The position numbers were made by a program, and so were the translations under genes. A DNA stretch of 64,000 bases from Dictyostelium discoideum. Lineage: Eukaryota. Positions 49,743-56,816 of this stretch are shown here, in pieces. The notes under the pieces are model-generated. The model was given only the letters and a program-made list of their open reading frames with translations, was not told the DNA's origin and did no database searches. The stretch spans positions 5,696,001 through 5,760,000 of the forward strand of contig CM000151.3 in assembly GCA_000004695.1 (NCBI GenBank). Direction: 5' to 3'. Each line of letters opens with the position of its first letter. The stretch's first letter is position 1.

Positions 49743-52700
49743 TTATTTACTTACTGTCGGGTTTGGATGATCTTTTGCTAAAGCAATGCAACTTTCTTCA
49801 AATGTTAAAGAAATATTTTGAGGGTTAATAAAATTTTGATTTTGATTTTCAATTGTTGGTTTTTGAAGTGTACCTTGATTAATTAAAAGGTCATCTAAAT
49901 AGATTGAATATTCTTTTATGGCTTGTGATATATTTTTAAAATAATTCCAGATTTTAATTTTACCAACAGTTATTGGTGAGTCGAAATAAAAGTAAATGAC
50001 ATTACTTTCTTTTGAAAATGATGGTATTTCAAGACCACGTGAATTATAAGATACACTATTACCACCCAATTGATATTGTTGTTGTTGTTGTTGGTGGTAA
50101 AGTGGTGACATACCATTATTATTATTACTATTTCCAAAACTAACTGAAAAATAAGGAATTAAAAATCCTTCACTCTCTTGAAAACTTAAATTATTACCAA
50201 TCAATTTGTAAGAATTCTTTACATCATTAGATAGAACACTACTTTTATTTGGTTTAATAATTGTATCATTTTGATCATAAATTTCAATCGCATGTAAACC
50301 AACGAAATTTCTATCACCATAATTTGAAATTATTACTAACTTTAATACAAATCCACTTGAATATTGTGATATTTTATTTTGATCTGTACCACTACTACAT
50401 GAGGAAGGTGGATTATTATTATTATTTATATTATTATTATTATTATTATTAAGTTTGTCCCAATTAAAAAATGAAATTGTTTGACCAAAATCAAATGTAC
50501 TATTACCTGGTGCTTTTCTAAAAATAAATCCATAATTATTTTGATTATTATTTTGAATATTATTAAGAGGTGATGATGATGATGATGATGATGATGCTGC
50601 TGCTGCTGGTGGTGGTGATAATGATTGACCATCTAAAAATATATTAACTTTTTTAGCACCTCTTGAAGCATCATCCAAACTTTTATTATAGTTCCAAATA
50701 CGAATACAAGATATTGAAAAAACGTTACCTAAATCAATCGTAAGAACATGTTCTTTTGAGGGAGAGAATGGAATTAACCACATATGTTTATCATTTGTAG
50801 TTACATTATGACCATCAATTAATTTATCTAAAGTTCTATAATCGCCACTATGACCAGGTACATCATTGATATCTTTTGGCTGAGCGGTAATATTTGAAGC
50901 TTGAATTGGTATTTGTTTATATTCATTATCAAATACCATAATCGATGTTAATCCCATATAGAATCTATCGCCCCATGTTGATAAAAATAAGAATTTCAAT
51001 TTTCTACCTTTTGGATAATGATTAGTTTGAAAGAAATAATCATTTTCACTTAATGGTGATGATGATGATTCACCACTAATAATCATTGATTGAGTTGTTG
51101 TGGTTGCTGTTGTTGTTAATGATGACATTGAAGTTGTGGACGAAGATGATGGTGGTTTTGACAATGATAATTTTGGTGATGATGGTGTTCTAAGTGTTTC
51201 CAAATAACCATAATTAGTTTTAACTGGTGAAATTGGTGGTGTTCTATATTCTCCAATTATTTTTTCATTATAATGATTAATTATATTATTATTATTAATA
51301 CTATTAATATTATTATTATTATTATTACTATTATTATTATTATTACCACTACTATAACTGCTATTATTTCTAGCTTCTTGATAAAATTTTACATCTTCTT
51401 CTTCGTCATCTTCATCTTCGTCTTCATCATCATCTTCATCATCATCATCATCTTCTTCTTCATTATTATTTTTTTTATTTAATTCTTCTAAATTATCTTG
51501 AGTTTGATTATTGGTAGTAGTAGTAGTGTTATCTTGAATATCATACTGATCCAAATCATCTTGTAAACTAAATTGATGATGTTGATAATTATTATGTTGT
51601 GTTGATGATTGTAAATGATGATTTGAATTGAAATAATCATTTTTTAAGGAAGGTTGATTATTATTATTATTATTATTATTATTATTATTATTATTATTAT
51701 TATTATTATTATTATTATTATTACTATTATTTTCATCATGAATGAAAGAAGGTGAAAATGGATCATTCTCTTCAATTCTATTAAATATTTCCTCTTTATT
51801 TGTAAAAACTATATATTCACAATATTGTTCACAACCTTGTAAGATACCAGGTGACTTTTTAATTGAACCTCTAAAGATAACATAACTATTATCAATTTTG
51901 ATTTCAATATCTTTTGCACCTCTTGATGAATGAATTCTAGATTTATTATAATTCCAAATTCTAATTAATGAAAGTGTAATTTTCGAATCCAATGTAATGG
52001 TGATTGTATTCACTTGACCAGCTGTAAAAGGTGCTAACCAAAGATGATTATCATCACAAGTTCTTGGATGTCCATCCATAATTTTATCGATTGTTCTTGG
52101 ATCATTACTATGTTGATAATGATTTCTATTAGAATGTCCATTAACATTATTATTATTATTATTGTTATTATTATTATTATTATTATTAATATCATTTAAA
52201 TCACTTGGAAATGCTTTAATTTGAGATTTTGGATCCTTTAATTTCACATAGGAACCATTTGAATCAAAAATATCAATACCTGATAATCCAACATAATGTT
52301 GATCACCCCATGTACTATAAATATTAATTGTAATAACTCTACCAGTTGGATTTAATGTTAATAATGGTGCTCCAAATGATTGCGTTTCAATAATTGGTGT
52401 TGATGGTTGTTTATTATTATTATTACTATTGTTGTTATTATTTGATGTTAATTTCAATTTCTCTGTTGAATTTATAACATGCTGTAAATCGAATGTGTGT
52501 AAATGTAAATTTGGTGATGGTGATGGTGATGGCGATGGTGATGGTGATGGTGATGGTGATGGTGATGGTCTTTCAATGTATTGTTGTGAATTATTATCAG
52601 TTTCTTGGTTTATCGAGTGACTATTATTATTATTATTATTATTATTATTATTATTATTATTATTATTATTATTATTATTATTATTATTATTATTAATATT

Positions 52701-56816: not shown

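Follow-up and report, generated by a model that had tools for sequence, protein, structure and literature searches.

Results

The window contains the katA locus

We analysed a 64,000-nucleotide stretch of the Dictyostelium discoideum genome (assembly GCA_000004695.1, contig CM000151.3, positions 5,696,001 to 5,760,000 of the forward strand; hereafter the window). Its minus strand carries an open reading frame (ORF) that begins with an ATG and runs for 2357 codons plus a stop, and that belongs to katA (DDB_G0275861), the gene encoding Katnip (Table 1; all coordinates are positions in the window). D. discoideum katA was characterised by Starling, Phillips, Ganesh and King (2023, Mol Biol Cell 34:ar12, PMC10011725). 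Four of the primers published there match the window with 0 mismatches, namely KO_F (54555-54578), P1 (54579-54602), KO_R (49037-49065) and P4 (48502-48523). The distance from KO_F to KO_R in the window is 5542 bp, against a knockout fragment described as '5.5-Kb', and the BamHI site at 53434 lies 2537 bp from the HindIII site at 50897, against a deletion described as '2.5-Kb' (PMC10011725). Because the primers match exactly, and because both the fragment and the deletion sizes agree with the publication, we conclude that this is the D. discoideum katA locus. Two further published primers, P2 and P3, gave no match in the window; we take them to lie in the resistance cassette, PMC10011725 being silent on their location. 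The ORF and the published katA are the same gene, with the same N-terminus rich in asparagine and glutamine repeats (poly-N/Q) and the same DUF4457 repeats, and we found no substantive difference between them. An exact-sequence look-up in a protein collection returned no entry identical to the product of the 2357-codon ORF, or to that of a 58-residue two-exon ORF directly downstream. The same look-up with a 5′-extended katA model (see below) also returned no entry, the query being approximate (2425 instead of 2427 residues).

Table 1. Features of the katA locus and its surroundings, in window coordinates (aa, amino acid residues).
Feature	Position	Strand	Details
katA (Katnip, DDB_G0275861) main ORF	49743..56816	-	PF14652 E=3e-147; exact katA primer matches
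Candidate 5′ extension (inferred)	56817..57130	-	splice model from sequence features
N-terminal region, about aa 1-1489	52350..56816	-	mostly poly-N/Q/S/T low complexity, with few short ordinary islands
DUF4457 unit 1, about aa 1490-1685	51762..52349	-	E=1.1e-40; two stretches, both on the profile's first half
Linker between units 1 and 2, about aa 1686-1942	50991..51761	-	low complexity: poly-N, acidic D/E run, S/T-rich stretch
DUF4457 unit 2, aa 1943-2114	50475..50990	-	E=4.2e-70, profile positions 2-148; sandwich modelled at pLDDT 95-98
DUF4457 unit 3, Pfam stretch aa 2116-2319	49860..50471	-	E=7e-41, profile positions 150-322
GTAAGT hexamer, codons Val-Ser	49749..49754	-	followed by AAA (Lys) and the TAA stop at 49743..49745
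Knockout deletion, BamHI-HindIII	50897..53434	-	blasticidin cassette in its place; about aa 1128-1974 are lost, comprising unit 1 and the beginning of unit 2
Two-exon ORF, 58 aa, directly downstream of katA	exon 1 49266..49295; exon 2 49037..49183	-	exon 1 ATG...ATA, then GTAAGT donor; MNSLYRTKEITRYTLVSTSDKDDIIF...MASYLK
Multi-exon RasGEF-domain gene, converging on the katA 3′ region	45548..48830	+	domain split over at least 2 exons, 47872..48234 and 48366..48830
97-aa cysteine-rich ORF, divergent from katA	58202..58495	+	MSSVSIEQFKNEKDL...CPPC...YCGDE...CFQ...SC...DC...
ABCG/PDR-type ABC transporter, upstream of katA	58874..62560	-	ABC2_membrane 329 bits and ABC_tran
Further ABC_tran-bearing exon	63029..63577	-	ABC_tran

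Three DUF4457 units at the C-terminus

A reading of the raw letters made before any database search (the sequence-only reading) had called this ORF a KATNIP-like gene, and had set a DUF4457 profile search beforehand as the test that could refute the call. The search gave a significant match for the whole protein and for each block: PF14652 (DUF4457, the KATNIP domain) matched the full-length product in three stretches with 490.5 bits (gathering cut-off 26.7, E=3.1e-147), and the three units also matched when scanned singly (Table 1). Together with the names of the homologues (see below) and the katA primer matches, this bears out the original gene call. The PF14652 model has 323 positions and spans two repeat units, since unit 2 fits positions 2-148 and unit 3 positions 150-322; katA has three such units. 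The blocks, of about 170-200 residues each, are also related to one another far more closely than chance would give (blastp E-values of 8e-31 between blocks 1 and 2, 8e-9 between blocks 1 and 3, and 1e-7 between blocks 2 and 3).

The three blocks had been expected to share a precise pair of motifs. The exact pair, STWGD...Y.GL and IRIWNYNKS...SRGAK, is present in unit 1 (STWGD at aa 1502 and IRIWNYNKSRIHSSRGAK at aa 1618) and in unit 2 (STWGD at aa 1947 and IRIWNYNKSLDDASRGAK at aa 2038). In unit 3, by contrast, the motifs are degenerate, reading SNYGD (SNYGDRNFVGL) and IKIWNYFKN (aa 2287), with no RGAK. The residue ranges first given for blocks 1 and 2 (1320-1520 and 1700-1900) were off by about 170-240 residues, the Pfam boundaries being ~1490-1685 and 1943-2114. 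The overall layout is the ancestral 1+2 arrangement, in which unit 1 is followed by a linker and then by units 2 and 3 as a pair.

Low-complexity tracts sit inside the folded domains as well as between them. The Pfam match of unit 1 is split by a 14-residue poly-N run (aa 1544-1557; 52146..52187, minus strand) that is part of a longer insert, presumably located in a loop. Unit 3 contains a Q/N-rich loop of about 36 residues (aa 2228-2263; 50028..50135, minus strand), which is disordered in the structural model described next.

The units are predicted to be discoidin-like beta-sandwiches

We modelled units 2 and 3 (aa 1925-2357) with AlphaFold2 from an alignment of 36 sequences. The mean predicted local distance difference test score (pLDDT) was 79 and the predicted template modelling score (pTM) was 0.72, with 227 residues at a pLDDT of 90 or above. 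The model consists of two beta-sandwiches, with disordered low-complexity loops both between and within them; the sandwich of unit 3 extends over about aa 2153-2336, with a pLDDT of about 90 outside its Q/N-rich loop and below 50 within it.

Judged by this model, units 2 and 3 appear to be galactose-binding/discoidin-type sandwiches, and IFT25 was among the fold matches. A remote relationship of the DUF4457 repeats to the IFT25 jelly-roll had been inferred earlier with HHpred (Sanders et al. 2015, PMC4699358), and the model of the katA units agrees with such a jelly-roll fold. Their kin at the level of fold are the galactose-binding-domain-like beta-sandwiches, which include the F5/8 type C discoidin domain, CBM32, the muskelin discoidin domain and IFT25/HSPB11. 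Searched against the F5/8 type C family itself (PF00754), only unit 2 gave a match, and this stayed below the cut-off (18.7 versus 28.2 bits); the discoidin likeness is one of fold, not of family membership. A sequence search of the Protein Data Bank with units 2 and 3 returned no match at E<=1, so that no solved structure of the family is detectable by sequence.

Katnip is orthologous to KATNIP proteins of other eukaryotes

We searched 5.8 billion proteins for homologues of units 2 and 3. Ninety-nine were found at E<=1e-5, every one of them (99/99) carrying PF14652, from organisms as diverse as Guillardia, Phytophthora, Selaginella, Physarum, Nematostella, insects, nematodes and fish. Several are named as KATNIP domain-containing protein, katanin-interacting protein-like, KIAA0556-like, K04F10.2 or JBTS26. 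All are of at most 755 residues, and the list contains neither the D. discoideum protein nor vertebrate KATNIP at full length; the candidate step of the search seems to favour short proteins, and the absence of long orthologues from this list is uninformative.

By its gathering score katA belongs to PF14652, its three units agree with the three or four repeats of about 150-170 residues typical of the family (PMC4699358, PMC10011725), and the order of the units matches that in other lineages. It is nevertheless conceivable that katA shares the domain without being a true KATNIP orthologue, that is, that it is a lineage-specific protein with acquired repeats and an unrelated function. Outside the three units the protein has no detectable similarity to anything. 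It also ends about 20 residues past the last strand of unit 3 (49743..49860, minus strand) and lacks the C-terminal tail motif VY..EQxVQFxNE..RPxTS, a conserved element that many KATNIP homologues share, from those of Physarum to those of vertebrates. To go beyond mere sharing of a domain, we compared katA unit by unit with three-unit homologues. Units 1, 2 and 3 each found their best match in the unit at the same position in Guillardia, Phytophthora, Selaginella, Nematostella and four others; in two insects and one nematode the positional match was ambiguous for unit 2, but not for units 1 and 3. This comparison covers homologues of up to 755 residues, a set outside which full-length human KATNIP falls. 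The conserved tail is missing from several other homologues as well. Moreover, DUF4457 is confined to this protein family, in which it is always repeated three or four times (PMC10011725, PMC4699358), and the localisation to the centrosome and microtubules is conserved (PMC10011725). An origin of katA by acquisition of the repeats is thus very unlikely, and we regard Katnip as a member of the KATNIP orthologue group.

Low complexity of the N-terminal region

Asparagine, serine and glutamine make up 27.2%, 12.4% and 9.2% of katA residues, respectively, and N, Q, S, T, D and E together 60.4%, somewhat less than the 'about 70%' estimated at first. The extreme low complexity noted in the sequence-only reading is nonetheless real: low-entropy windows hold 62.6% of the residues and homopolymer runs of at least five residues hold 21%, the longest being N76, N52 and Q43. 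Such a composition is typical of D. discoideum, and the G+C content is about 15-30% throughout the window.

Most of this sequence lies in the N-terminal region, where an entropy map reveals islands of ordinary sequence at aa 512-551, 845-877, 946-970, 1107-1141, 1204-1243 and 1285-1356. A Pfam scan of aa 1-1472 found no family at E<=1, and hence no fourth DUF4457 unit was detected there. This is in agreement with PMC10011725, which reports no clear homology outside DUF4457, and in which the poly-N/Q repeats blocked cloning of the full-length D. discoideum gene. The orthologue of Dictyostelium lacteum, which is without such tracts, localises correctly (PMC10011725), so the long low-complexity N-terminus is probably a disordered and dispensable expansion.

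One could suspect that the long ORF is itself an artefact of AT-rich trinucleotide repeats, only the C-terminal third being expressed. Repeats of this kind keep one frame open by construction, the share of N/Q/S/T/D/E residues (about 60%) and of homopolymer runs (21%) is high, and ORFs for poly-I/L occur on the antisense strand. A frame free of stops over 7 kb at about 25% GC is, however, very unlikely to arise by chance, and the non-repetitive islands dispersed across the N-terminal half all remain in frame. Long poly-N/Q tracts are frequent in D. discoideum proteins in general (PMC10011725, and as general background), and the authors of PMC10011725 count the repeats that impeded their full-length cloning as the N-terminal part of the gene. 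We consider an artefact of this sort extremely improbable, and treat the whole ORF as coding sequence of katA.

The ends of the gene model

The gene had been described as intronless. This is true of the 7-kb ORF, but katA may have a short additional exon at its 5′ end. The frame stays open for 75 codons upstream of the ATG, and these codons take in an (AAT)n microsatellite that translates as poly-N. A candidate exon 1 consists of the 6 bp ATGAAT (57125..57130) and is followed by the donor GTATGT. The candidate intron (57021..57124) is 104 nucleotides (nt) long, reads GTATGT...ATAAAG, has a GC content of 10.6% and ends with a T-rich tract and AG. The 68 in-frame codons that follow it (56817..57020) would bring the addition to 70 residues in all. 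The non-repeat parts of this extension have a GC content of 27-33%, as compared with 13% in intergenic DNA. On these features a start at 57130, with a 6-bp first exon and 70 more residues, is plausible; it is a minor point of annotation and may already be in dictyBase.

At the other end of the gene, a GTAAGT hexamer was thought to overlap the stop codon and to allow an alternative 3′ exon. It lies three bases upstream of the stop, without overlap. Used as a donor with the nearest acceptors, it would yield the endings FNI* (80-nt intron) or WLFLVNYKE* (101-nt intron), changes no larger than an exchange of the final VSK for FNI or a gain of nine residues; a longer splice is unsupported by profiles of the homologue tails.

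Such a longer splice would join the hexamer, over 571 nt, to the exon at 49037..49183 and give katA the C-terminus ...NPT-TRYTLVSTSDKDDIIFNNFENNIG...SYLK, and the true katA stop codon would then be the site of the published reverse knockout primer. The first bases of this primer (TTATTTTAAATAACTAGCCATTTCTGTAT) are the reverse complement of the TAA (49037..49039) at the end of the exon, the phase-0 junction is open, and the encoded DDIIFNNFENN resembles, by eye, the family motif D(V/I)xxxN(D/E)N. Against this, the spliced form gains nothing over the unspliced one when scored with a profile of homologue tails (15.4 and 15.7 bits, respectively), and a profile of the missing motif ranks the exon only 327th among 1280 six-frame fragments of the window. 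The downstream exon, moreover, has an ATG exon and a GTAAGT donor of its own (49295..49266), with which it forms a self-contained two-exon gene of 58 residues. An intron of 571 nt would also be long for D. discoideum. A 3′ extension of katA is very improbable, and we retain the stop at 49743..49745. As a candidate for the conserved KATNIP C-terminal tail, the exon 49037..49183 was rejected, being favoured by neither the whole-tail nor the motif-only profile.

Neighbouring genes

The protein encoded by the 58-residue ORF downstream of katA gave no Pfam match. The KO_R primer begins exactly at the stop codon of this ORF, and the 3′ homology arm of the knockout therefore covers it entirely. Beyond it, a RasGEF-domain gene approaches from the opposite strand; its large upstream ORF (45548..47590) has no Pfam match, and the screening primer P4 falls in its last exon. 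On the other side of katA lie a small cysteine-rich ORF, with a weak sub-threshold match to the GCK domain in Pfam (22.1 bits, cut-off 27.2), and ABC transporter sequences (Table 1). Two plus-strand ORFs inside katA (54606..55112 and 56620..56985) encode poly-I/L; they mirror the coding repeats on the antisense strand, and we rejected them as genes. A search of the window for tRNA genes found none.

Discussion

What is known of katA in vivo comes from PMC10011725. In katA-null cells autophagosomes and phagosomes form, but their contents remain undigested, and the delivery of lysosomes to both is impaired. Vesicle transport along microtubules is slowed or impaired, while microtubule dynamics are unaffected, and expression of tubulin tagged with green fluorescent protein (GFP) is toxic. 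When the D. lacteum orthologue was expressed in D. discoideum with a GFP tag, it was found at the centrosome and the spindle and, after oxidative damage, in puncta along microtubules. The authors reported orthologues across eukaryotes except in fungi and Drosophila, and concluded that the microtubule role of Katnip is a general one, which extends beyond cilia and may lie in lattice repair. The sequence-only reading had anticipated a function independent of cilia, in microtubule or katanin regulation. The microtubule role has thus been published for katA, whereas the katanin part is doubtful, as Dictyostelium has no clear katanin orthologue (PMC10011725). For the same reason the name KATNIP, which refers to binding of katanin p60/p80, may not describe the function of the protein in Dictyostelium.

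The closest points of comparison are the animal proteins. Human KATNIP/KIAA0556 (JBTS26) and Caenorhabditis elegans JBTS-26/K04F10.2 share with katA the DUF4457 units that define the family, and JBTS-26 has the same 1+2 layout. Like Katnip, the animal proteins have been localised to the centrosome or basal body and to microtubules. Human KIAA0556 binds microtubules in vitro and interacts with katanin subunits, members of the family having three or four DUF4457 repeats (PMC4699358), and work in animals has shown that KATNIP stabilises and activates the kinase CILK1. The two C-terminal DUF4457 units of JBTS-26 bind axonemes in vitro, and JBTS-26 and kinesin-II compete for IFT88 (PMC12663925). 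The animal proteins act in cilia (at the basal body, at axonemal doublets, on IFT88 and in the handover from kinesin-II) and bind katanin p60/p80 and CILK1. In contrast, Dictyostelium has neither cilia nor a clear katanin orthologue (PMC10011725). Katnip differs further from many KATNIP homologues in having no conserved C-terminal tail motif. The katA protein is also about 1.5 times as long as human KATNIP, owing to the low-complexity expansion.

Taken as a whole, the data are best explained if Katnip, the product of katA, is the D. discoideum orthologue of human KATNIP/KIAA0556 (Joubert syndrome 26); we put the probability of this reading at about 0.95. The working part of the protein is its three DUF4457 units, which follow some 1500 residues of sequence that is rich in poly-N/Q/S and probably disordered. 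The jelly-roll units would serve as protein-binding modules that dock Katnip on the centrosome and on the microtubule lattice. By analogy with C. elegans JBTS-26, the pair formed by units 2 and 3 would be the likely microtubule-binding element. Docked in this way, Katnip may help to keep microtubules usable as tracks, possibly via lattice repair, and would do so without katanin and without cilia.

Several points weigh against this picture. The molecular mechanism was not established in PMC10011725, where microtubule repair was offered as a speculation, and the localisation attributed to Katnip is that of the D. lacteum protein, from which that of the katA product itself would follow by analogy. 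In vitro, JBTS-26 binds axonemal doublets and not singlet microtubules (PMC12663925); since Dictyostelium has only cytoplasmic and spindle microtubules, the analogy for units 2 and 3 may not carry over. A clear katanin orthologue is lacking (PMC10011725), and the animal partners of KATNIP in general (katanin and a CILK1/RCK-type kinase) may be missing in Dictyostelium. The exact katA gene model, including its 5′ and 3′ ends, is a prediction from the DNA.

A more far-reaching version of the proposal would be that the units are discoidin-like ligand-binding modules which, in a cell that has neither cilia nor a clear katanin orthologue, directly recognise some property of ordinary microtubules (damaged lattice or a tubulin modification, for example), that Katnip represents, in minimal form, an ancestral function in microtubule maintenance on which cilia drew later, and that the gene includes the 5′ mini-exon with its 70 extra residues. 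As a joint claim we find this doubtful, and its part concerning microtubule recognition is largely speculation that has already been published.

The gene katA, its family, the fold of the repeats and the role independent of cilia are all in the literature, and later papers on KATNIP cite PMC10011725. Our analysis adds an independent confirmation that this locus is katA, and a check at the level of fold of the repeats as discoidin/IFT25-like sandwiches in the ancestral 1+2 order. It also raises two small questions about the gene model, which leave the overall picture unchanged. The retention of a human ciliopathy gene in an organism without cilia suggests an older function of a general kind, that of keeping microtubules fit for vesicle transport and for lysosomal delivery; this argument has already been made, and experimentally tested, for katA (PMC10011725).

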